A stretch of DNA of 32,000 bases, from positions 481,820-513,819 of the forward strand of contig JBFXCS010000002.1 of the NCBI GenBank assembly GCA_050181915.1, given 5' to 3'. Below the pieces are notes generated by a model. That model ran no database searches. It was not told where the DNA came from and was given only the letters and a program-made list of their open reading frames with translations. Position 1 is the stretch's first letter. Each line of letters begins with the position of its first letter. Source of the stretch: Thermoleophilia bacterium. GTDB taxonomy: Bacteria; Actinomycetota; Thermoleophilia; Miltoncostaeales; Miltoncostaeaceae. The position numbers and the translations under genes were made by a program. Of the stretch, positions 4,539 to 15,060 are shown one piece after another.

Positions 4539-4718
4539 GTGAGCGCTCCCCGTGAGGATGGCGCCGCGCCGAGCGTCTACGCGCGGCTGGCGGCCGAGGA
4601 GGAGATCCGCTTCGTGCGCCGCACCCCGCCGCGCAGCGCGCGCTGGGTGGGGATGGCGCTGTGCCTCGCCATCGCCGTGGTGATCCTGATGGCCGCGCTG
4701 CGGGTCCACCCCTGGTAA
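4539..4718 (+). CDS. small membrane protein (one TM helix), function unknown
   Basis: GC3 becomes high only from the in-frame GTG at 4539; the ATG at 4440 sits in low-GC3 sequence. The C-terminal WVGMALCLAIAVVILMAAL is a TM helix. The stop overlaps the tmk 5' region. Confidence 0.35.
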   Translation: MSAPREDGAAPSVYARLAAEEEIRFVRRTPPRSARWVGMALCLAIAVVILMAALRVHPW

Positions 4719-5326
4719 CTCCCCGCTTCATCGCCCTCGAGGGTATCGACGGCAGCGGAAAGAGCACGCAGGCGCGGTTGCTCGCCGATGCGCTGGAGGA
4801 GCGCGGCATCGCCGTGGAGCGCACCCGCGAGCCGGGCGGCACGGTGCTGGGCGAGCGCGTCCGCGAGCTGGTGCTGTCGGGGCTGCCCGGCGAGATCGGC
4901 CTGGTGGCCGAGGCGCACCTGTTCGCCGCCGCCCGCGCCGAGCTGATGGACCGCGTGGTCGGGCCGTCGCTCACCGCCGGCCGGTGGGTGGTCACCGATC
5001 GCTTCATCGACTCGTCGCTCGCCTACCAGGGAGCGGCCCGCGGCCTCGGCATCGACCTCGTGCTCGGCATCAACCGCAGCGCGGTGGGCAGCCGCCTTCC
5101 GGACCTGTCGCTGGTGATCGACCTGCCGCCCTCGCTGGCGACGACGCGCCGCTGCGCCTCGGCGGACCGCATCGAGGCGGAGGGCGACGGCTTCCAGGCG
5201 CGCGTCGCCGCGGGGTACCGGGAGCTGGCGCGGCGCTTCCCAGACCGGGTGCGGCTGGTGCCCGGTGAGGGCGACGTGCAGGAGGTGCACGCCCGCGTGC
5301 TGGCCGCCGTCGGGATCTTCCCGTGA
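4661..5326 (+). CDS. tmk: dTMP (thymidylate) kinase
   Basis: FIALEGIDGSGKSTQ P-loop and RTREPGGT, DRF..SSLAYQG motifs. The ATG at 4661 is the only canonical start, but codons 4661-4711 have poor GC3, so the true start may lie near 4712. Confidence 0.85.
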   Translation: MPRHRRGDPDGRAAGPPLVTPRFIALEGIDGSGKSTQARLLADALEERGIAVERTREPGGTVLGERVRELVLSGLPGEIGLVAEAHLFAAARAELMDRVVGPSLTAGRWVVTDRFIDSSLAYQGAARGLGIDLVLGINRSAVGSRLPDLSLVIDLPPSLATTRRCASADRIEAEGDGFQARVAAGYRELARRFPDRVRLVPGEGDVQEVHARVLAAVGIFP

Positions 5327-7209: not shown

Positions 7210-7282
7210 GCCGACGTAGCTCAGCTGGTAGAGCACTTCACTCGTAATGAAGGGGTCCGGGGTTCGAGTCCCCGCGTCGGCT
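7210..7282 (+). tRNA. tRNA-Thr (anticodon CGT)
   Basis: 73-nt cloverleaf. Acceptor GCCGACG/CGTCGGC, D arm AGCTCAGCTGGTAGAGC, anticodon loop CT-CGT-AA, T arm CGGGGTTCGAGTCCCCG. No encoded CCA. Confidence 0.95.
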
Positions 7283-7973
7283 CTACGATCTCGGGCCGTG
7301 AATGGCCAAGCCCCCGCCAATGCCCCCGCCTTTTCCATCGAGAGGCCGTCGGACCCCGCCTCCCGCGGCCCCCATCGACCACCGTCATCTGCACGAAGTC
7401 GTTCATCGCGAAGTAGGTGCGCGTGGCCCGCACCCGGTGGACCCGTCCGCGGCGCCAGCGCTCCGGCACGTGGCCGGCCAGCTTCACCGGATCAGCGCTG
7501 TAGGCGACCATCGCCAGTGGATCCCGGATCGCCTCCGCCCACGCCCTCCCACCGCCCAGCACGCCCGCCCAGGCGCGATGTGCCACCTCCTGCGCCTGAT
7601 CCGCCTGCTCGGCCCGGACGCCCTTCACCAGCAGGTGCAGGTGCGGCGCCCCGTCCAGATGCAGGACCGCGCAGTCCTGCCAGCCGGTGGCCAGCACCCT
7701 GCCGGCGGCCCTGACCCGCTCCAGCGCCCGCCTCACGTCCGCCAACGCCGGCAGGGGCCGCGGCATCGTCAGGGTGAGGGCGACCGTCGGCGGGTCGCGG
7801 CGGGCGTCATCGAGCAGCCGTCGGCGCCAGGCCCGGCCCTTCGCCGGCCCGCAGGCGGGGCAGGTCCAATGCCCGCACCGCACCCGCCGCACGACCCGCC
7901 CGCTCGGCGAGCGCTCGATCCACGGAGACGGGCACCGGGGCCGTCCCCGTACATCCTCTCCCTTAGCCCCCAC
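7221..7973 (-). CDS. RepSA/HUH-type replication initiator-like protein, probably 3'-disrupted
   Basis: Zinc-knuckle-like CGHWTCPACG, followed by VALTLTMP and an HUH-like APHLHLLVKG. GC3 collapses after about 7375, and the frame only stops inside tRNA-Thr (C-terminal EPTRGLEPRTPSLRVKCSTS is antisense tRNA). The start is ambiguous: GTG at 7973, while a strong RBS plus ATG at 7952-7954 is in another frame. Confidence 0.5.
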   Translation of the reverse strand: MGAKGEDVRGRPRCPSPWIERSPSGRVVRRVRCGHWTCPACGPAKGRAWRRRLLDDARRDPPTVALTLTMPRPLPALADVRRALERVRAAGRVLATGWQDCAVLHLDGAPHLHLLVKGVRAEQADQAQEVAHRAWAGVLGGGRAWAEAIRDPLAMVAYSADPVKLAGHVPERWRRGRVHRVRATRTYFAMNDFVQMTVVDGGRGRRGPTASRWKRRGHWRGLGHSRPEIVEPTRGLEPRTPSLRVKCSTS

Positions 7974-7988
7974 GGCCGGGGCCCCGCT

Positions 7989-8318
7989 CTACGCCCGCGC
8001 CCTCTCACGGCGTGGTCGATCCAACCGCACAGAGGCCTCGACCTCGGATCGCAGCAACAGCAGCCGGCCGCCCTGCTTGTGCGCCGTGAGTGCCCCGGTG
8101 TAGATCCGGTCACGGACCTGCGCGGCCGTGAGCCGCAAGTGCTCGCCCGCCTCGCTGGTCGTCATGTAGGGCGACTTCGTCGGCGCCGTGTCCGGGGTCG
8201 TGGTGATCTCGGCCACCTGGCGCTGCACCTCGGCGCGGACGATCTCGGCCACCTGGCGCTGCACCTCGGTGGCGATGAGGTCCGCGAGGCCGTCCAGGAT
8301 CGCCTCGGCCGGGGTCAC
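7989..8318 (-). CDS. excisionase-family (MerR-like) helix-turn-helix DNA-binding protein
   Basis: YMTTSEAGEHLRLTAAQVRDRIYTGALTAHKQGGRLLLLRSEV matches the excisionase/HTH_17 pattern. GTGA overlap with the upstream gene. Confidence 0.65.
   Translation of the reverse strand: MTPAEAILDGLADLIATEVQRQVAEIVRAEVQRQVAEITTTPDTAPTKSPYMTTSEAGEHLRLTAAQVRDRIYTGALTAHKQGGRLLLLRSEVEASVRLDRPRRERARA
8205..8276. repeat. 36-bp in-frame tandem duplication (2 copies)
   Basis: GATCTCGGCCACCTGGCGCTGCACCTCGG occurs at 8205-8233 and again at 8241-8269, 29/29 identical. It encodes the duplicated peptide EVQRQVAEI in the excisionase-like protein. Confidence 0.9.
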
Positions 8319-8920
8319 GGCCGGCCCCCGATCCGACGAGCTGCACCCCGGGCCGCCGAAGCGGCGCGGTAGGCCCTCGCGGCGTCCGCCGGGCTCCCGG
8401 ACCGCTCGGCCCGTTCGCCGACCGCGGAGAGCCGCTCCGCCTCGCGCTCGAGCTCGGCGATCGCCCAGGCGCGTGGGCTGCCAGCCGGTGGGGGCGGAGG
8501 GTCGTCGCCATCGCCGGGCGCGCGCGGCCGAGCCGCCCGGCGATGGCCCGGGCGGCCGTGGGGTGTGCGGGCGCGGGCCGGCCCCCGTCCTACGGCACTG
8601 GCCGCGTCGAGGTCGCGCAGTCGTAGCCGCAGGACTACGCGCCAGCGGCAGAAGGCCTCGCGGCGCTGGCGGGCCAGGCGCTCGACCTCATCGGCGTGAC
8701 CGTGATGCTGACGGTGGCGCCATCCGTCGGCTGTTGCCTCGGCGGCGAGCTGCCAGGTGCCTTCGTGGTGGTCGACGCGGTCGAGGACATCATCCACGTC
8801 TACACCGAACAGGTGTGCCACGGAGCGCGGCTCCTCGCCGGCCGCGACCCACCTGGCCGCCGCGTCGAGCGCCGCCTCCTCGGCGAGCCGCGCACCGGCG
8901 GCGCGCAGGGCGGCGACCAT
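8315..8920 (-). CDS. hypothetical protein of the mobile-element module
   Basis: High GC3 from the first canonical in-frame ATG (8918-8920). The upstream part of the 289-aa ORF crosses the AT-richer intergenic region. Coupled by GTGA to the excisionase-like gene. Confidence 0.4.
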   Translation of the reverse strand: MVAALRAAGARLAEEAALDAAARWVAAGEEPRSVAHLFGVDVDDVLDRVDHHEGTWQLAAEATADGWRHRQHHGHADEVERLARQRREAFCRWRVVLRLRLRDLDAASAVGRGPARARTPHGRPGHRRAARPRAPGDGDDPPPPPAGSPRAWAIAELEREAERLSAVGERAERSGSPADAARAYRAASAARGAARRIGGRP

Positions 8921-9138
8921 GGCCGCGTCGTCAACCAGGGTGGTCGGGATCAGGTTCGCCGGCGATGCCGGCGACGGGGCGCTTGACCCCGGGTCTAGCG
9001 CGTTGATCGTGCGCTCATGAACATCTCTCCCGTGAGTGCGTTGCGGCCCGCTCCGTTGCTGACTCCGGGGCGGGCCGCCTTGATTTTTACGGAGCACTTG
9101 TAGCACCCTCTGCGCGGCACAGAATATCGCCAATAGCA

Positions 9139-9218
9139 GGTGATTCACATACGCACACCTAAGGTGACGTATCGGGTGATTCACCTATTCACATCTAAAG
9201 TGACGAGAGGAGATTCAC
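9139..9218. promoter_or_regulatory. iteron/operator-like repeats: two 31-bp direct repeats and three GTGAnTCAC-type palindromes
   Basis: GGTGATTCACATACGCACACCTAAGGTGACG (9139-9169) versus GGTGATTCACCTATTCACATCTAAAGTGACG (9175-9205), 26/31 identical. Core copies are GTGATTCAC at 9140 and 9176 and GAGATTCAC at 9210. This is the locally AT-richest stretch, between divergent genes. Confidence 0.55.
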
Positions 9219-9220
9219 GG

Positions 9221-9568
9221 GTGAGCACCGACACTGCCGCGCCTGTCGAGATCATCAACGAAGCGGTCAACGTGATCCGCCGCCCGCCTTCCCACCTCCT
9301 GCGCCCGTTCGGCGACGCGGTTCAGGCCGAAGTCCGCCGCCGCGCCGACGATCTTGCGAGGGATCCGGACTGGCTCACCTGCGCCGAGGCGGCCCGCCGC
9401 GCGGGCGTGGGCGGCCGCGCGAGTGGGGGCTCGAACCTCGGACATCCGCCGGGCTCCGCAGATCCGGGACGCCATCGTAGGCGACCCGCCGCCGGCACCG
9501 GTACCTGCGCCGTCCGGTCCGCGCGGGTACGGTCCCCCGCGACTGAAGGCATTCGTTCCTTTTGTTGA
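9221..9568 (+). CDS. hypothetical protein (possible degenerate HTH)
   Basis: GTG start 8 nt after the RBS GAGAGGAG. GC3 is high up to about 9420 (..DWLTCAEAARRAGV, HTH-like) and poor afterwards. Confidence 0.35.
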   Translation: MSTDTAAPVEIINEAVNVIRRPPSHLLRPFGDAVQAEVRRRADDLARDPDWLTCAEAARRAGVGGRASGGSNLGHPPGSADPGRHRRRPAAGTGTCAVRSARVRSPATEGIRSFC

Positions 9569-9569
9569 A

Positions 9570-9602
9570 TTGACAAGTGGCATGGCATCCGCGTGCTATC
9601 CT
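9570..9602 (+). promoter_or_regulatory. candidate promoter of the defence operon
   Basis: Consensus -35 TTGACA at 9570-9575. The downstream candidates TGCTAT (18-nt spacer) and TATCCT (21-nt spacer) are both imperfect. Confidence 0.3.
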
Positions 9603-9627
9603 GGCAGACACGATGGAGGGGAACCCG

Positions 9628-9972
9628 ATGACCGACGAGCTTCAGCGCCGACAGGAGATCGGCCGCAACATCCGCGCCGCCCGCGACCGGGAGGGCCTCA
9701 CCCTCCAGGAGCTCGCCGCGCGCGTCGGCGGCGACGCGTCGCGCCTCAGCCGGATCGAGAGCGGGGGGAGGGGCATCGACAGCGTCCTGCTGTTCGACAT
9801 CGCCGACGCCCTCGATGTGTCGGTCGACTCGCTCCTTGTGAGCGGGCGCTTGGCGGCGTTCGCCCGGGGCGAGCGCCAGCCGGGTGAGGACGACCCCCAC
9901 GTGCGCTGGGGGATGCGGATGATCGAGGAGATCCAAGCCGCCGAGCGCCTCGTGAGGCGATATGGCCTCTGA
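9628..9972 (+). CDS. XRE-family helix-turn-helix regulator (CapH/ImmR-like)
   Basis: ATG at 9628, 8 nt after the RBS GGAGGGG. IGRNIRAARDREGLTLQELAARVGGDASRLSRIESGGR is a canonical XRE HTH. Overlaps the next gene by 11 nt. Confidence 0.8.
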   Translation: MTDELQRRQEIGRNIRAARDREGLTLQELAARVGGDASRLSRIESGGRGIDSVLLFDIADALDVSVDSLLVSGRLAAFARGERQPGEDDPHVRWGMRMIEEIQAAERLVRRYGL

Positions 9973-10756
9973 CCTTCGCCCGGAGCCGCCCTGGCTGGCC
10001 GGAGAGCGCGCCGCGCGCGCGCTGCGCTTCGAGCTCGGCCTCGGCCACGGGCCGATCGACATCTATGACGTCATCGAGCAGCGCGGCGTGGCGATCGCCT
10101 TCCGTGATCTGGGAGGCGACGACGGGCGCTACATCTTCCACAACGGCAAGGGGCTGATCCTCGTCACCTCCACCTGCGAGGAGGCCTCGCGGCAGCGGTT
10201 CACCGCCGCGCACGAGCTCGGGCATCACGAGCTGCACCGCTTCGACGCCAACGGCGAGGTCGAGACAATTCTGATCGACAAGACGGTCCTCGGCACCGGC
10301 GGCGACGCGCGCGAGCAGGCGGCCAACTCGTTCGCGGCGCGGCTGCTGCTGCCGACCGAGGCCCTTGAGGCGCGCTTTTCGGAGCGGCAGGACGTCACCG
10401 TCGAGCAGGTCGGCGAGCTCATGGACCGCTTCGGGCTCTCCTACACGGCGACCGTGTTCATGCTCCACAACGCCGGCCGGATCAGCAACGCCCGCCGTGA
10501 CGCTCTGCGCCGCGAGGGCGAGGGTCTCGTGCACCGGCTGTCGGCCCGCTCGGAGGAGCCGCGCAAGGCCGAGCCGCCGCACGAGCTTCAGCGCCAGCTG
10601 GCCAAGCTTTACCGGGCCGGGCTGGTGCCCGCCGAGCGCCTGGCGGAGCTCACCGGCATGTCGGTGGAGCAGGTCGCCGAGGAGTACGGCCCGCCCGAGG
10701 AGCCGGAGACCGACATCGGCAACCTCCTGCGCGAGATCGAGGGCGAGGAGGCCTGA
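9962..10756 (+). CDS. ImmA/IrrE-family (M78) zinc metallopeptidase (CapP/ImmA-like)
   Basis: HEXXH motif in FTAAHELGHHELH, downstream EQAANSFAARLLLP, and the typical XRE-ImmA gene pair. Confidence 0.85.
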   Translation: MASDLRPEPPWLAGERAARALRFELGLGHGPIDIYDVIEQRGVAIAFRDLGGDDGRYIFHNGKGLILVTSTCEEASRQRFTAAHELGHHELHRFDANGEVETILIDKTVLGTGGDAREQAANSFAARLLLPTEALEARFSERQDVTVEQVGELMDRFGLSYTATVFMLHNAGRISNARRDALRREGEGLVHRLSARSEEPRKAEPPHELQRQLAKLYRAGLVPAERLAELTGMSVEQVAEEYGPPEEPETDIGNLLREIEGEEA

Positions 10757-10758
10757 CC

Positions 10759-11421
10759 GTGGAGGAGGCCCTCGACCCGGAGGATCTCGAGGTGGGCACC
10801 GATACGTCGGTGCTCATCGACCTCGCCGAGGGCAAGGTGTTCCAGGGCCTCCACGAGCTCTTTCCGGCTGTCGGGCTGCCCGGCATGGTCAAGCAGGAGC
10901 TCGAGCGGCGCACCTCGCGCCTCAACACCATGGTTCTCGCCGCCGACTGGCTCGTCCCCATCCGGGCCGAGGAGCCCGAGGACCTCGGGTTCATCGCCGA
11001 CCTGCACCGCAGCCTGGGAGGCCCGCCCAAGAACGCCGGCGAGGCGGAGCTGATCGCGCTCGCGCGGCGCCACGACTGGGTCGCCCTGATCGAGGACAAC
11101 GCCCGCAGGGTGGCGATCCGCGAGGGCGTGCACGTGATCCGCCTGAGCACCCTCGCCGCCGCCGCGGCCGCCTGCGAGGTCGTCCCGGTCGACCGCGCCT
11201 GGGGCCTTCACCGCGGGTTCCACATGCGCCGCCCACCGCAGCGGATGCCGGCGATCGGCACCACGCCGGCTGACCGCGACCGCTTCGACCGAGCGGTCGA
11301 CGCGATCGGAGTCCTGGCTGGCCATCGCGGGCGCCCCGCCTGGCCCGGGCTCCTGCGCCATCCGACCCTCAAGCCCGGCCAGCTCGATGAGCTCGTGCGC
11401 CAGATCGGCGAGCGGCCGTGA
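10759..11421 (+). CDS. PIN-like (DUF3368-type) predicted nuclease with a ~70-aa C-terminal extension
   Basis: GTG start 2 nt after the ImmA stop, RBS GAGGAGG. Acidic PIN-like positions: GTDTSVLIDL, NAGEAELIALARRHDWVALIEDNARRVAIREGVHVIRLSTL. Confidence 0.55.
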   Translation: MEEALDPEDLEVGTDTSVLIDLAEGKVFQGLHELFPAVGLPGMVKQELERRTSRLNTMVLAADWLVPIRAEEPEDLGFIADLHRSLGGPPKNAGEAELIALARRHDWVALIEDNARRVAIREGVHVIRLSTLAAAAAACEVVPVDRAWGLHRGFHMRRPPQRMPAIGTTPADRDRFDRAVDAIGVLAGHRGRPAWPGLLRHPTLKPGQLDELVRQIGERP

Positions 11422-12656
11422 CGAGCACCGCGCCGATGCCGGGCGCGGCCGTCCGACCCGCGGACGGCGAGCCCCTGCGCGCGTTCGCCTCCTACAGCTG
11501 GAAGGCGCCCGCGGACATCGAGAGCATCGCCCGGCTCGTCATCGAGCTCCGCCTGCGCGGCTTCGTCACCTTCAGGGATGCAGAGGCGATGCCGCCGGCG
11601 GGTGGCATCGAGGCGGTCATCCGCGCCGAGCTCGCCCGCAGCACGGTCTTCGTGCCGTATTTGACCCCCGACTCGCTCGAGAGCGACCCGGTCGTCGACC
11701 TCGAGTTCCACACCGCCGCCGAGCTCCGGCGCCTGCAGGGCTCACCCGTCGTCCTGCCCGTGGCGCGCAACCTCGGCACGGACCGCAACAAGCTCACCAC
11801 GGCGACCTGGGCCCGCCTGCAGCATGACTTCTCCGCTCAATGGAACACGTTCCCCGGGCCCGGCGACGGACCACTCGATCTCGCCGACGCCGCCGCCCAC
11901 GCGAACAACGCGCTCCGCGCGAGCTTCGCCGAGGGCGCCGGGCCCGCGGACGGATGCTGGGAGCTGGGCCTGGCGACCCGCGGTGAGCGGCCGCCGCCCA
12001 CCCAGCTGACCGTCGATGCGACTGGCCTCGTCGGCGGTCCGGATGCCCGAGCCGGGTCTCTGGAGGACTGGGAGAGGATCTTCGCGGGCCTCTGCGACCT
12101 GAAGCGGGCCCTCACCGCCCATGGCCGCCGCCGCCGGATCCTTCTTCGCCCGGCCTGCCATCTGAGCGCCGCCCTCGCCGTCGGTTGGGTGTTCCGCCGG
12201 GCGGCCGGCTGGCGGCTGGAGGTGGCACATGAGGACGTCGAATGCCGCTCCTCCGACACGCTCGAGCACCCGGGGCTCGTGGTCACACGCGACTACGGCG
12301 CCTTCAGCGCCCGCGGCGGGCGCCTCGTCGTCTGCATCGACCTGGTTCCGCGCGGTATCCGCGACAGCGTCATCCGGGCGCAGGCCGCCGCGCCGCGGGC
12401 GGTGCTGTCGATCAGCGCCGCCGACGGCTCCCTCCGGATCCCGGTCGACGAGCTCGGCGCGATGGCTGGCGCCGCCGCGGCGGCGATCAAGGACCTCCGC
12501 GGCGAGACCCACGCCGAGGAGGTCGCCCTCTACCTGGCGAGTCCCGCACCCTTCGCGGCGCTTCTCGGCGCCGAGTTCGGCGCGCTCGGCTGCCCGCTGC
12601 TGCTGCACGAGCACGACAACGCCACCTACCAGCCCTCCATCGTGATCCCGGGGTGA
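11418..12656 (+). CDS. TIR-SAVED fusion protein (predicted cyclic-oligonucleotide-activated NADase effector)
   Basis: The N-terminal ~130 aa are TIR-like: FASYSWK...LRGFVTFRDAE...STVFVPYLTPDSLESDPVVDLEF. The C-terminal ~280 aa resemble SAVED: ILLRPACHLSAALAVGWVFRR...ALYLASPAPFAALLGAEFG. GTGA overlap with the PIN-like gene. Confidence 0.7.
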   Translation: MTSTAPMPGAAVRPADGEPLRAFASYSWKAPADIESIARLVIELRLRGFVTFRDAEAMPPAGGIEAVIRAELARSTVFVPYLTPDSLESDPVVDLEFHTAAELRRLQGSPVVLPVARNLGTDRNKLTTATWARLQHDFSAQWNTFPGPGDGPLDLADAAAHANNALRASFAEGAGPADGCWELGLATRGERPPPTQLTVDATGLVGGPDARAGSLEDWERIFAGLCDLKRALTAHGRRRRILLRPACHLSAALAVGWVFRRAAGWRLEVAHEDVECRSSDTLEHPGLVVTRDYGAFSARGGRLVVCIDLVPRGIRDSVIRAQAAAPRAVLSISAADGSLRIPVDELGAMAGAAAAAIKDLRGETHAEEVALYLASPAPFAALLGAEFGALGCPLLLHEHDNATYQPSIVIPG

Positions 12657-12658
12657 CC

Positions 12659-13627
12659 ATGACCGCCGACGCCTACTACCGCCAACTGCTGAAGGACATC
12701 GCCGTTCCGATGGAGGACATCGAGGCCGCCCGCGAGGCGCGCGACGACCTCGGCGCCGCGGCCGTCGAGATCCTGAAGGGCTGGGGCCTCGGGTCCCCGG
12801 GGTTCTTCGCCGCCGGCGCGCTCGCGGCTGGCACCCAGATCGCCCCCCTGAACGACGTGGATCTCGTCGTTCGGGCGAACAAGATCCGCACTGGTTGGAA
12901 GGACGCGCCGCGGAGGGCGCTCGAGGACCTCTGCGTGGCGATGGGTGCGGTCGGCTATACCTGCGAGACCGGCGCCCACGCGGTCAAGGTGATGTTGCCC
13001 GGTGAGCGGTTCACCGCCGACGTCGTCTTCGGGTGCGTACATCCCGAGCAGGGTCTGTGGATCCCGCACTGCCCCAAGGGCGAGGTGCCGGCCTGGATCC
13101 GGACCGACCCGAAGGCGCACCGCGACCAGGTCAAGCAGCGCAATCGTGACCTCGGGGTCGAGTTCGCGCGGGAGATCCGGATCGCGAAGGCGCTGAACCG
13201 CAAATGGGCGCTCGCCGACGCTGAGGGCCGAAAGCCGCTCAGCTCGTTCCACATGACCGCGCTCGCGCTCGCCCTCATCACAACACCGGTCGACCACGCC
13301 CGGACAACCCCGCGCTTCCTCGAGGCGGCGGCCCGCCGTGTCCTGACACCCATGCGCGACCCGGCCGGCGTCGGACCCGATCTCGAGGCCCGGGACCCCG
13401 CCCGTGCGTCAGCCCTGCTGGCGGAGGCGGCTCGGCTCACCCGCGAGGCCCTCGCGGCCGGCGACGACGCCGAGCGGATCCTGCGCACGGTGTTCGGGGA
13501 TCCGGCGACCACGACCGGTCTCGCGGCAGGCAGGCGAGCGAGCGTCGTGGTCGGCGGGACGCTCGCCCTCGGCACGGCGGGCCGGGCGGTCGGGATGGGT
13601 CGCTCCTATGGGGACCTGGCCCGCTAG
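12659..13627 (+). CDS. CD-NTase / SMODS-type nucleotidyltransferase (second-messenger synthase)
   Basis: ATG 2 nt after the TIR-SAVED stop. Pol-beta NTase signature GALAAGTQIAPLNDVDLVV (G[SA]x10DxD), third acidic residue in FTADVVFG, then WIRTDPKAH and IRIAKALNRKW as in CD-NTases. Confidence 0.75.
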   Translation: MTADAYYRQLLKDIAVPMEDIEAAREARDDLGAAAVEILKGWGLGSPGFFAAGALAAGTQIAPLNDVDLVVRANKIRTGWKDAPRRALEDLCVAMGAVGYTCETGAHAVKVMLPGERFTADVVFGCVHPEQGLWIPHCPKGEVPAWIRTDPKAHRDQVKQRNRDLGVEFAREIRIAKALNRKWALADAEGRKPLSSFHMTALALALITTPVDHARTTPRFLEAAARRVLTPMRDPAGVGPDLEARDPARASALLAEAARLTREALAAGDDAERILRTVFGDPATTTGLAAGRRASVVVGGTLALGTAGRAVGMGRSYGDLAR

Positions 13628-14315
13628 CGCCAGCCGCCGGGCCGGCGGCCGATCCCACGCGCGCCGCCGGCGGCACCTCGCCCGCCAGCGCCTGCATCGC
13701 GTCCAGCGCCGTGCGCTGCGCCACCTGCGGCGGGCGAAGGCTCGCCGGAAAGCCCGCCCTTGGCGCGGCTGGTGGGAGCGGCATCCGCTCGACCTTGTGG
13801 CGCTCGAGGCCGGCTTTCCTCCCGAGTACGCGGGTTTCGAGCGTCGGATCGTCGGCCGTGCGCTCGTCTACAACGGGATCGTCGAGGTGCCGGACGTCGG
13901 TGCGCGCCGTCTGGCACTCATCTTCGCCGAGCGGCCGGGGCTGCGCGCGCCGATCGTGATGGCCGACGGGCCGCGTCGCTCCCGCCACCGCTACCGCTGG
14001 GCGCGGCCCACCTCCCTCTGCATCTGGCACCCCGATGATCCGCCGCCGGATCGCTGGAGCCTGCGCGAGGGGCTCGTTGGACTCATCGACCGAGCGCGGG
14101 TGCACCTGTTCCTCGAGGCGTGGTGGCGGGTGAGCGGCCGGTGGGACGCCCCCGAGGTCCATCGCGAGCCCCGGGGCGATGAGCGCGCAGGGGCGGGACG
14201 GGTCCGCCGAAAGGTTGCTCGCCAGTGGTGCTGGTGCGGAACTCGCCGCTACAGCGCATGCCACGGGGCGATCTCCGAGGCCAGCGAACTCACGGCCGTA
14301 GGCCTCGGCGGCTGA
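13608..14315 (+). CDS. E2/UBC-like protein with a C-terminal SEC-C zinc-knuckle motif
   Basis: HRYRWARPTSLCIWHPDDPPPDRWS resembles the E2 HPN...C...W core, after a beta-meander-like YNGIVEVPDVGARRLALIF. The C-terminus CWCGTRRYSACHG matches the SEC-C pattern. The start is uncertain: ATG at 13608 overlaps the cyclase by 20 nt, and the next in-frame GTG is at about 13797. Confidence 0.45.
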   Translation: MGTWPASASRRAGGRSHARRRRHLARQRLHRVQRRALRHLRRAKARRKARPWRGWWERHPLDLVALEAGFPPEYAGFERRIVGRALVYNGIVEVPDVGARRLALIFAERPGLRAPIVMADGPRRSRHRYRWARPTSLCIWHPDDPPPDRWSLREGLVGLIDRARVHLFLEAWWRVSGRWDAPEVHREPRGDERAGAGRVRRKVARQWCWCGTRRYSACHGAISEASELTAVGLGG

Positions 14316-14386
14316 CCCGGCCGGCGCCCGCCGGCGCGTTGCGAACACCCGCGTCCACGTCAGCGGCGCCGGTTAGGGTGGGCTTC

Positions 14387-14612
14387 ATGGCCACCTCCGT
14401 GACGCTTCCCAACGGCGAGGGCGAGTTGCCCTTCGCACGCACCCTGTTCGAGGCATGCGATCGGCTCCGCGGGCATGTGGAGTTGGCCGAGTACAACACT
14501 TGGTGCTCGGCCTGATCTTCCTGAAGCACATCTCCGACGCCTTCGAGCGCCGGCGCGCCGCACTCGACGCCGAGACCGGCCGCCCCGAGTCCGCCCTCTA
14601 CACCGAGGAGGG
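14387..14612 (+). pseudogene. hsdM: type I restriction-modification methylase (HsdM) 5' fragment, frameshifted and truncated
   Basis: LFEACDRLRGHVELAEYN continues in another frame as HLVLGLIFLKHISDAFERRRAALDAE, the HsdM N-terminal signature. This implies a 1-nt deletion near 14495-14498. Similarity ends at about 14611-14625. Confidence 0.6.
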
Positions 14613-15060
14613 CGCGAGCGGTGCGGTCCGCTGTGGATGCGGTGGCCGACCCGTTCGATGCGGCCGAGCTTCTTGACGTCGATGTGGATCAGCTCGCCGG
14701 GATGGGCGCCGTCGTGGGTGGCGGGTAGGCAGTTAAGGCCCGAGCGGGTGAGCACCGCCCGCACGGTGCGCTCGGCAACGCCGAAGTCGCCGCGATGCGG
14801 GTGCCACTGAACCGCAGTTCGCGCAGCGCGCAGATCGCGTCCTCAACCTCGGCCGGTGTCCGGTGGGCAGCCGGGTGGGCTGCCGGGGGGCGGTCCTCCA
14901 GGTCGTGGTCGCCGGCCCGCCGGCGGCGCCCAGCCACTCCCGGGCGCGGCGCTCGTTCAGGCCGGCCGCCTCGGCGGCCTGCCTGAGCGTCCATCCCTCA
15001 TCCTCGACGGCACAACAACCGTCGTGAGGCCGGGCACGTCCTGGCGTTCTGATGAAGTGT
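14613..15060 (-). mobile_element. IS481-family transposase pseudogene (N-terminal part only, several frameshifts)
   Basis: Pieces lie in three frames on the minus strand: LHQNARTCPASRRLL; VEDEGWTLRQAAEAAGLNERRAREWL; RTPAEVEDAICALRE; ERTVRAVLTRSGLNCL...PGELIHIDVKKLGRIERVGHRIH. The DDE core after that point is missing. Confidence 0.6.

Follow-up and report, generated by a model that had tools for sequence, protein, structure and literature searches.

An apparent composite operon joining an XRE–ImmA–PIN module to an E2-only CBASS in a Thermoleophilia genome

Control of CBASS, an anti-phage system that signals through cyclic oligonucleotides, by the CapH/CapP pair in response to DNA damage has been established experimentally (10.1101/2022.04.27.489752). 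CapH/CapP very frequently accompanies CBASS of the "type II short" kind (Table S1, 10.1101/2022.04.27.489752), and the "vast majority" of these pairs lie on the strand opposite to the CBASS genes (10.1101/2022.04.27.489752). Among the 408 CapH/CapP-associated CBASS systems tabulated by Lau et al. (10.1101/2022.04.27.489752) there is one TIR effector, and a search of the table for the words "PIN" and "toxin" returned no such annotation; the same study contains an undiscussed "vapC-like gene" beside a CapH–CapP fusion at a Nocardia DISARM locus. In both CapP and IrrE, single-stranded DNA (ssDNA) is sensed in a groove between the peptidase and GAF domains (10.64898/2026.05.16.725639). The subject of this report is a block of six genes at positions 9628–14315 (+ strand, taking the XRE gene from the ATG at 9628) of a 32,000-nucleotide stretch of DNA from a Thermoleophilia bacterium of the Miltoncostaeaceae (assembly GCA_050181915.1, contig JBFXCS010000002.1, positions 481,820 to 513,819), the whole of which is referred to here as the window. 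Judged from gene content and spacing, the six genes look like one operon in which two known anti-phage modules, an XRE–ImmA–PIN trio and a CBASS with a stand-alone E2-like protein, have been joined.

The first of these modules has described relatives among toxin–antitoxin systems. The combination of a helix-turn-helix (HTH) protein, a DUF955/COG2856 protein and a PIN protein of the COG2405/DUF3368 type has previously been listed among predicted toxin–antitoxin systems of three components (PMC5499597; Makarova et al. 2009, PMC2701414). UPF0175 is reported to occur exclusively adjoining COG2405/DUF3368 PIN proteins (Matelska et al. 2017, PMC5499597), and the pairs that UPF0175 and DUF3368 form are considered to be toxin–antitoxin systems. 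In VapBC52, self-cleavage of the antitoxin is triggered by ssDNA and frees the PIN toxin; the C-terminal domain of VapB52 occludes the PIN active site of VapC52 in the crystal structure, and the main toxin-binding part of the antitoxin is its XRE-like N-terminal domain (PMC13273310).

The second module belongs to a class that has likewise been described. E2-only CBASS has been reported from 616 genomes, and 73.65% of the cyclases in published E2-CBASS, which are longer than the one in the window, belong to clade G (PMC12948482). These cyclases are reported to have a conserved glycine at the very end, or a glycine plus one residue in the case of Serratia (PMC12948482; 10.1101/2022.05.25.493364). 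The Serratia E2 is a cysteine protease that removes the residues after the terminal glycine and requires a histidine upstream of its cysteine (10.1101/2022.05.25.493364). No published description of the joined arrangement was found in the literature searched, each half being known. With moderate confidence, the block is interpreted here as a composite operon in which module 1 (9562–11421), an XRE–ImmA–PIN switch, would be functionally coupled to module 2 (11418–14315), an E2-only CBASS.

Organization of the block and of related loci

The XRE–ImmA–PIN trio is a portable unit and not a set of CBASS parts. At every related locus with readable context (all 12 readable PIN homologues), the PIN gene lies 1–6 nt behind an XRE–ImmA pair, and what follows the trio varies. 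Five loci (L002, L003, L008, L011 and L012) continue with genes for TIR-SAVED, cyclase and E2 as in the window, and L007 (2789-6845) has the same order together with a ThiF-type E1 (PADLOC E1-E2, 3.5e-131) and a cyclase that ends in glycine. At three other loci (L004, L005 and L013) the trio is followed by a different CBASS lineage, only 24–29% identical, in which the order is cyclase, E2 and TIR-SAVED, and at L006 it is followed by a 357-aa protein without a family match that adjoins the DISARM gene DrmC. The trio is intact at L001 (8660-9090) and L009 (1605-2035), where the CBASS has been cut to residues 1–110 and 185–218 of TIR-SAVED. ImmA and PIN from these two loci are 92% and 79–81% identical, respectively, to the window proteins, and one of the two loci is in a metagenome-assembled genome of the Miltoncostaeaceae. 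Survival of the trio after deletion of the CBASS would fit an addictive module. A "100-aa gene" at L001 was considered as alternative cargo and rejected when tblastn identified it as the shortened TIR-SAVED gene. One further locus (L010) is uninformative, as it holds an N-terminally truncated PIN remnant that adjoins an unrelated VapC-like open reading frame (ORF) and has no XRE–ImmA pair upstream.

Both halves of the block also occur apart. At L014 and L015, ImmA homologues that are 41–45% identical to the window protein have a DUF3368 gene behind them and lack a CBASS, and the TIR-SAVED, cyclase and E2 cassette occurs without the trio at L016 and L017; the cassette at L016 stands alone and has its own 123-nt upstream spacer. 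Because the trio and the CBASS cassette each occur separately, the six-gene block is read as a fusion of two portable modules. The same cassette at L019 (2546-4617) is preceded by a DUF2188/PDC-S16 gene and is divergent from an XRE–ImmA pair, with a 190-aa protein lacking a family match at the position where PIN would sit. At L018 (3082-9102), an HTH–ImmA fusion and a DUF4411 PIN protein lie upstream of a NucC CBASS, with a gap of 466 nt in between. In order, this CBASS encodes NucC, a cyclase, an E2 of the SEC-C type, another cyclase and a 196-aa protein that matches TrkA_C weakly. This last CBASS is a two-cyclase relative of the one in the window. On plasmid p_1 of Mesorhizobium loti (L021; CP050295.1, 107158-114805), a type III CBASS (cyclase 4.5e-127, HORMA 2e-82, TRIP13 1.3e-127) is divergent from an RmrA-like HTH–ImmA fusion (6.6e-54) and an annotated PIN-domain protein, and so the pairing of ImmA and PIN beside CBASS is also found in a cultured proteobacterium.

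An earlier note, made from the sequence alone, had taken the six genes for one CBASS subtype of unrecognised composition. That claim is not sustained by the related loci, as PIN belongs with XRE–ImmA and the trio occurs without CBASS or with other cargo. The E2-only composition and the effector-first order, which the note had counted among the features of the unrecognised combination, are both known: E2-CBASS is a described class (PMC12948482), and the effector-first order is fixed in the CBASS lineage of the window (L016, L018 and L019). What does stand out is that the regulators are co-directional with the CBASS and fused into the apparent operon, whereas the published CapH/CapP pairs are mostly on the opposite strand.

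Six + strand ORFs lie between 9577 and 14315, all with the codon-position GC pattern of coding sequence (GC at third codon positions, 0.84–0.93) in DNA with a G+C content of ~73%. The same note had given the junctions between the six same-strand genes as −11, +2, −4, +2 and about −20 nt, and all of these are correct. The XRE stop at 9972 lies beyond the ImmA ATG at 9962 (−11); the ImmA stop at 10756 is followed by the PIN GTG at 10759 (+2), with GAGGAGG closely 5' of the latter; the PIN stop at 11421 overlaps the TIR-SAVED GTG at 11418 as GTGA (−4); the TIR-SAVED stop at 12656 is followed by the cyclase ATG at 12659 (+2); and the cyclase stop at 13627 lies beyond the E2 ATG at 13608 (−20). Use of another possible TIR-SAVED start, the ATG at 11436, would change the junction with PIN to +14. 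In every fused locus, and in two unrelated CBASS lineages, the first CBASS gene lies −4 to +24 nt from the PIN stop. A simple pattern scan called no promoter or terminator inside 9000–14800.

Two of the starts call for comment. XRE most likely starts at the ATG at 9628 rather than at 9577, since GGAGG precedes the former and the resulting 114 aa equal the length in relatives. The E2 start is the least certain of the six, as two close relatives are annotated as starting 57 codons further in, a position that corresponds to the GTG at 13797 in the window. This start would leave a 169-nt non-coding spacer after the cyclase gene and was rejected as the main reading in favour of 13608 because an N-terminal extension and a WW..PLEL motif upstream of the 13797 position are conserved in an alignment of 36 homologues.

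Components of the two modules

A putative promoter/operator upstream of XRE (9562..9602, +) consists of the inverted repeat TTGTT-GAATT-GACAA at 9562–9576, which includes TTGACA, and a −10-like TATCCT at 9597–9602. In the alignment of eight related loci, TTGyC-N5-GrCAA followed by TGCTAnnnT (containing a −10-like TAnnnT) is kept in all eight at a fixed distance from the XRE start, and the DNA around these elements lacks conservation. A generic sigma-70 scan made no call at 9562..9602. The repeat has the pattern expected of an autoregulated XRE operator and is a candidate for that function. The XRE gene (9628..9972, +; alternative starts at 9613 and 9577) encodes a 114-aa CapH-like repressor that matches Pfam HTH_3 (3.6e-11) and PADLOC capH (4.5e-8); RmrA models also match it weakly, in their N-terminal part. 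The protein, in which the conserved linker GRLxAFARGERQP stands between an N-terminal HTH and a C-terminal helix, is the most conserved of the three trio proteins (76–96% identity across close trio loci). By analogy with the F82–R83 cleavage site of CapH (10.64898/2026.05.16.725639), XRE may be cleaved within the AFARGE part of this linker.

The second gene (9962..10756, +) encodes a 264-aa zinc metallopeptidase of the ImmA/IrrE/CapP type (Pfam Peptidase_M78, 4.3e-21) with the motif HELGH and conserved catalytic-type residues H84, E85, H88 and E118. The peptidase domain is followed by an IrrE-type helical HTH (~147–186), a helical domain resembling UPF0175 and the VapB52 C-terminal domain (~200–245) and an acidic tail. 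The match to PADLOC capP (7.4e-29) is confined to positions 7–148 of the 242 in that model, and the RmrA model of PADLOC matches residues 15–243, which is full length (1.8e-19). An AlphaFold2 model of ImmA (predicted local distance difference test score, pLDDT, 90) is all-helical after residue 107 and has its best fold matches in CapP (7t5t), IrrE and PprI, over ~175 columns. Since the model is all-helical after the peptidase domain, ImmA is taken to lack GAF; neither a GAF domain (from the model and the capP profile coverage) nor a cysteine-switch loop (from the model and fold comparison) was found. The profile of the ImmA family, which comprises 184 proteins, matches CapP 7t5t at positions 61–164 only. 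The same profile aligns to residues 180–388 of the 393 in chain 9vzy_A, C-terminal domain included, this chain being taken as Mycobacterium tuberculosis VapB52 from its length and molecule name. The Pfam family UPF0175 matches the C-terminal region in 48 of 113 ImmA family members (best 4.3e-5). That the UPF0175 signal merely reflects the central HTH of IrrE was considered and rejected, as the HTH helices are at 147–186 and the UPF0175-like region is at ~200–245, where CapP has its GAF domain. ImmA thus appears to be CapP-like in its peptidase half only, with a UPF0175-like domain in place of GAF, and it carries a toxin-occluding domain by homology only (UPF0175 matches and the alignment to the VapB52 C-terminal domain).

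The third gene (10759..11421, +) encodes a 220-aa DUF3368/COG2405 PIN-like protein that consists of a PIN domain (~1–140) and a conserved helical C-terminal extension of ~80 aa. It matches PDC-S70, a PIN candidate defence family of PADLOC, at 1.5e-9. A Pfam scan of the window protein gave no match at E ≤ 0.1, and PF11848 (DUF3368) is precomputed for the 100% identical database protein, which comes from an 804-kb contig of a Thermoleophilia metagenome-assembled genome, and for all 12 PIN homologues. The AlphaFold2 model (pLDDT 92.2) has VapC toxins as its top Foldseek matches, with probability 1.00 and a target template modeling score of ~0.65; the PIN profile has no sequence match in the PDB. 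Invariant residues include D15, E47, E95/E97 and D113, as well as R146-A-W-G-L-H151 and P193/W195/P196. The C-terminal extension occurs in ~40 clusters at 50% identity and is absent from ordinary DUF3368 proteins. Homologues of PIN are rare, with 12 among 5.8 billion proteins, two loci among 185,579 species genomes and two in JGI metagenomes; searches of 72,556 plasmids and of 50,697 phage records yielded none. Pfam, PADLOC and the AlphaFold2 model gave no indication of a SAVED, CARF or other nucleotide-sensor domain in PIN.

The last three genes form, by their family matches, an E2-only ("type II short") CBASS. The 412-aa effector (11418..12656, +) is a TIR-SAVED protein (Pfam SAVED 1.3e-12 and TIR_2 7.1e-8; PADLOC SAVED_TIR 1.3e-33; NCBIfam SAVED 1.6e-17). 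Of the solved structures, Cap4 (6vm6, 2.2e-7) comes nearest to its SAVED domain. The putative catalytic Glu96 of its TIR domain does not vary among six relatives, the most distant of them 23% identical. Placement of the effector first is a feature shared with the classic capV–dncV operon. The 322-aa nucleotidyltransferase of the cGAS/DncV-like kind (CD-NTase; 12659..13627, +) has the Pol-beta motif G53…D66-V-D68…D121, in which G53, D66, D68 and D121 are invariant in relatives. It matches PADLOC Cyclase (1.9e-25), falls below cut-off for Pfam SMODS (5.9e-4) and NCBIfam CBASS_cyclase_b (2.8e-21), with the NCBIfam equivalogs below their curated cut-offs, and its closest solved structures are CdnD and CdnC (5.7e-6). 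The C-terminal tail reads …GRAVGMGRSYG-DLAR, so that four residues follow the last glycine, and the ending …SYG-DLAR is conserved in close relatives. The signal is likely a cyclic trinucleotide because the cyclase is CdnC/D-like, the SAVED domain is Cap4-like and a sister operon has a NucC effector.

The 235-aa E2-like protein (13608..14315, +; PADLOC E2, 6.3e-20) has an Arg-rich N-terminal region of ~60 aa, a UBC-like core with H127, R128 and C138, and a C-terminal SEC-C-like C3H knuckle, CWCGTRRYSACHG. Residues invariant in the 36 homologues are H127, R128, C138, C208, W209, C210, Y215, C218 and H219, and many of these homologues share the Arg/Lys-rich N-terminal extension with its WW..PLEL motif. 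No sequence match to a solved structure in the PDB was found. The conserved H127 and C138 together with the YG of the cyclase fit the trimming scheme of the Serratia E2, as far as sequence can indicate. The knuckle is one residue shorter than the motif of Escherichia coli SecA. A literature search found no paper linking SEC-C to a CBASS E2. From these features the window protein defines a predicted E2-CBASS subfamily with a basic N-terminus and an invariant C3H knuckle. In L008, a 93%-identical relative, a 1-nt deletion (4628-4798) breaks the frame of the E2 N-terminal extension, which could reflect a genuine truncation or else a mistake in assembly, the contig being of low coverage. The E2 of L007, which stands alongside a separate ThiF-type E1, has 145 aa and is without the SEC-C-like tail. 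In this small sample, the knuckle is present where E1 is absent.

The identities that the earlier note had assigned to the six proteins by motif are thus borne out by Pfam, PADLOC and NCBIfam, in the case of PIN through PDC-S70 and the precomputed DUF3368. Its assignment of the locus to CBASS is upheld by the SAVED, TIR_2 and PADLOC Cyclase matches, SMODS itself being below cut-off, and its description of XRE/ImmA as CapH/CapP-like agrees with the capH and capP matches and the fold match to CapP 7t5t. The E2 was also said to lack an E1 or JAB partner, and this is supported: tblastn of the window with a related E1 query found no E1, and no JAB domain was present in the neighbouring ORFs scanned, no search having been aimed at JAB. 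The ending of the E2 that the note had called SEC-C is supported as a SEC-C-like one. The knuckle CWCG-x3-Y-x2-CHG is invariant in 36/36 homologues, but matches to Pfam SEC-C (PF02810) are weak, occur in 9/36 homologues (best E 0.29) and do not include the window E2.

Directly after E2, at 14387-14994, lies a broken and frameshifted N-terminus of the type I restriction-modification protein HsdM (PF12161, 8.4e-4), followed by short ORFs that may be insertion-sequence debris. The broken HsdM and the possible debris suggest that the CBASS sits in a decaying defence island. On the other side of the block, three copies of a 36-nt unit, each with GTGATTCAC, are arranged in tandem at 9134-9218 with spacings of 36 and 34 nt, in a less GC-rich stretch between the divergent ORFs 8315–9184 (−) and 9221–9568 (+). 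These repeats could be iteron- or operator-like sites of a neighbouring mobile element. Further out there is a tRNA-Thr(CGT) gene (7210–7283). It adjoins a − strand ORF (7221–7973) that has a CxxC motif and no Pfam match, an HTH_17 excisionase-like ORF (7989–8318) and a 289-aa ORF without a family. The 7210-9184 region, in which no integrase was seen, has the appearance of a degraded element that had inserted at the tRNA gene.

Proposed working and alternative explanations

In the proposed composite operon, XRE would bind the inverted repeat over the promoter and keep the whole operon low, and the UPF0175/VapB52-CTD-like domain of ImmA would cap the active site of the DUF3368 PIN protein encoded 2 nt downstream. 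A stress cue, most likely ssDNA or DNA damage as for CapP, IrrE and VapB52, would switch on the protease, which would then cleave XRE in the conserved linker and thereby de-repress the six genes; the protease may also free the PIN nuclease. Upon infection, the CD-NTase would produce a cyclic oligonucleotide to be bound by SAVED, and the TIR domain would degrade NAD+. The E2 would trim and conjugate the cyclase tail after Gly318, as for the Serratia E2. The CBASS genes are probably read from the promoter of the trio because neither room nor signal for a promoter of their own was seen. By analogy with CapH/CapP, the trio probably also acts as a regulator of the CBASS. This is suggested by the close spacing of trio and CBASS in the fused loci, set against the 123-nt spacer of the standalone cassette, by the conserved operator-like repeat, by the CapH/CapP precedent and by the occurrence of ImmA and PIN pairs beside other CBASS types.

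Several points weigh against this working. The related loci are few and mostly metagenomic, and the evidence for co-transcription consists of the gene spacing and a weak pattern scan. The window ImmA, taken alone, matches UPF0175 at an E-value of 0.072, below threshold, and as the protein has no GAF domain its activating cue may differ. By analogy with VapB52, the separate XRE could be the main neutraliser of PIN instead of ImmA. Catalytic competence is not shared by every member of COG2405 (PMC5499597). At 322 aa, the cyclase is short; it does not resemble those of clade G, and its last residue is not glycine.

Alternatively, a RosmerTA/VapBC52-like toxin–antitoxin system and an E2-CBASS could be independent neighbours that lie side by side in a defence island, their tight spacing resulting from compaction. 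Separate occurrence of the two modules (L014 and L015 versus L016 and L017) is in keeping with this, as is the decaying island with its other defence debris (the HsdM fragment) and the location of related loci among DISARM genes. It is nevertheless unlikely, given the GTGA overlap or gap of ≤24 nt that all fused loci show, whichever of the two unrelated CBASS lineages they carry, the 123-nt upstream spacer that the standalone CBASS of L016 has for itself, and the recurrence of ImmA-type modules beside CBASS in three arrangements. Control of CBASS by CapH/CapP-type regulators, moreover, is established (10.1101/2022.04.27.489752).

A second alternative assigns PIN a different role, as a nucleic-acid-sensing subunit of the regulator and not a toxin. 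PIN would stand in, in trans, for the missing GAF, presenting ssDNA or RNA to the protease or docking XRE. The GAF domain of CapP makes up one half of the groove for ssDNA and is where CapH docks (10.64898/2026.05.16.725639), and a GAF-less protease that is always translationally coupled to a PIN protein with a conserved 80-aa extension not seen in ordinary DUF3368 toxins could be explained in this way. The invariance of all four canonical acidic residues, however, argues for an active nuclease, the C-terminal domain of the protease is homologous to a known toxin-occluding domain and pairs of UPF0175 with DUF3368 are considered to be toxin–antitoxin systems (PMC5499597), which together make a sensor role doubtful and somewhat less probable than independent neighbours.

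The strict two-effector idea, in which the cyclic nucleotide would activate PIN as an additional effector of the CBASS, is very improbable, for although PIN appears to be co-transcribed with the cyclase and some CBASS operons do carry two effectors, the protein lacks SAVED, CARF or any other nucleotide-sensor domain, tracks ImmA rather than the cyclase, occurs without CBASS and is intact after deletion of the CBASS, so that PIN was rejected as a CBASS-specific component.

The two-effector suggestion of the earlier note is plausible in a broader form, within the composite operon favoured here. It can tentatively be proposed that the trio acts as a portable "alarm plus nuclease" cassette and brings captured immune operons under the control of its promoter, such that one proteolytic event would both unleash the PIN RNase and induce the CBASS. 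If so, the locus would be a layered two-effector abortive-infection unit, no natural boundary would separate "CapH/CapP regulators" from "RosmerTA-type toxin–antitoxin defence systems", and the E2 subfamily with the Arg-rich region and the Zn knuckle may itself be a direct sensor of a nucleic-acid cue. If the coupling as such is real, a toxin–antitoxin switch would have been put to new use in regulating a larger immune operon, and the work on CapH/CapP, RosmerTA and VapBC52 would be linked as work on one protease module. Current models are not overturned.

Comparison with described systems

With CapH/CapP the window shares an XRE repressor and an IrrE-family HEXXH zinc protease directly upstream of a CBASS, with a conserved operator-like element at the promoter, and CapP is the best structural match of the window protease. 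The two arrangements differ in that CapH/CapP is typically divergent from the CBASS, with a shared promoter region, whereas the window pair is co-directional and fused into the apparent operon. CapP is built of peptidase, HTH and GAF domains; ImmA of the window has neither GAF nor a cysteine switch and appears to have the UPF0175-like domain instead. The window module, in addition, always has PIN as a third gene. It offers a compact test case, since a GAF-less relative of CapP must sense its cue in another way.

Systems of the VapBC52 and RosmerTA type are recognised by an M78 peptidase with a fused or adjacent XRE HTH in an operon with a toxin gene. The trio has this make-up in the order XRE–ImmA–PIN, and it is concluded to be a split relative of these systems with the DUF3368 PIN protein as its likely toxin. 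VapBC52 (PDB 9vzy) has the elements of the trio, namely a PIN toxin and, on the antitoxin side, an XRE HTH, an IrrE-like peptidase that carries an HTH and a helical domain at the C-terminus; the mechanism published for it is the pattern for the working proposed above. In VapBC52, however, the antitoxin parts are all in one 415-aa protein, VapB52, while XRE of the trio is a separate gene, and VapB52 has a cysteine switch that the trio ImmA lacks. The trio toxin, furthermore, is of the DUF3368 type with an extra C-terminal extension, and no CBASS is attached to VapBC52. RosmerTA (RmrT/RmrA; 10.1101/2022.05.11.491447; PMC10440598) resembles the trio in having a zinc-peptidase antitoxin with an XRE HTH, paired with variable toxins that include PIN-like families. 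RmrA is normally a single HTH–peptidase fusion in a stand-alone pair, whereas the trio has these functions split over two genes and heads a CBASS.

The CBASS half is comparable to the CdnG–E2 system of Serratia marcescens. Both have a CD-NTase and an E2 that stands alone, without E1 or JAB, the E2 in each case has a conserved histidine ~11 residues before the catalytic cysteine, and the cyclase in each has a flexible tail with a glycine near the end, followed by residues that the E2 could trim. The Serratia cyclase is of the long clade-G type, whereas that of the window has 322 aa and is closest to CdnC/CdnD. The Serratia E2 has a Lys-bearing tail, in contrast to the Arg-rich N-terminus and C3H knuckle of the window E2, and the window effector, TIR-SAVED, is also a difference between the two systems. 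The combination of a CdnC/D-like short cyclase and a C3H-knuckle E2 subfamily could help to explain which signal reaches the E2 in E2-only CBASS. Relative to the literature found, what is new in the window is the co-directional joining of XRE–ImmA–PIN onto a CBASS, a GAF-less, UPF0175-tailed relative of CapP, the 80-aa extension of PIN and an E2 subfamily with a basic N-terminus and a Zn knuckle.

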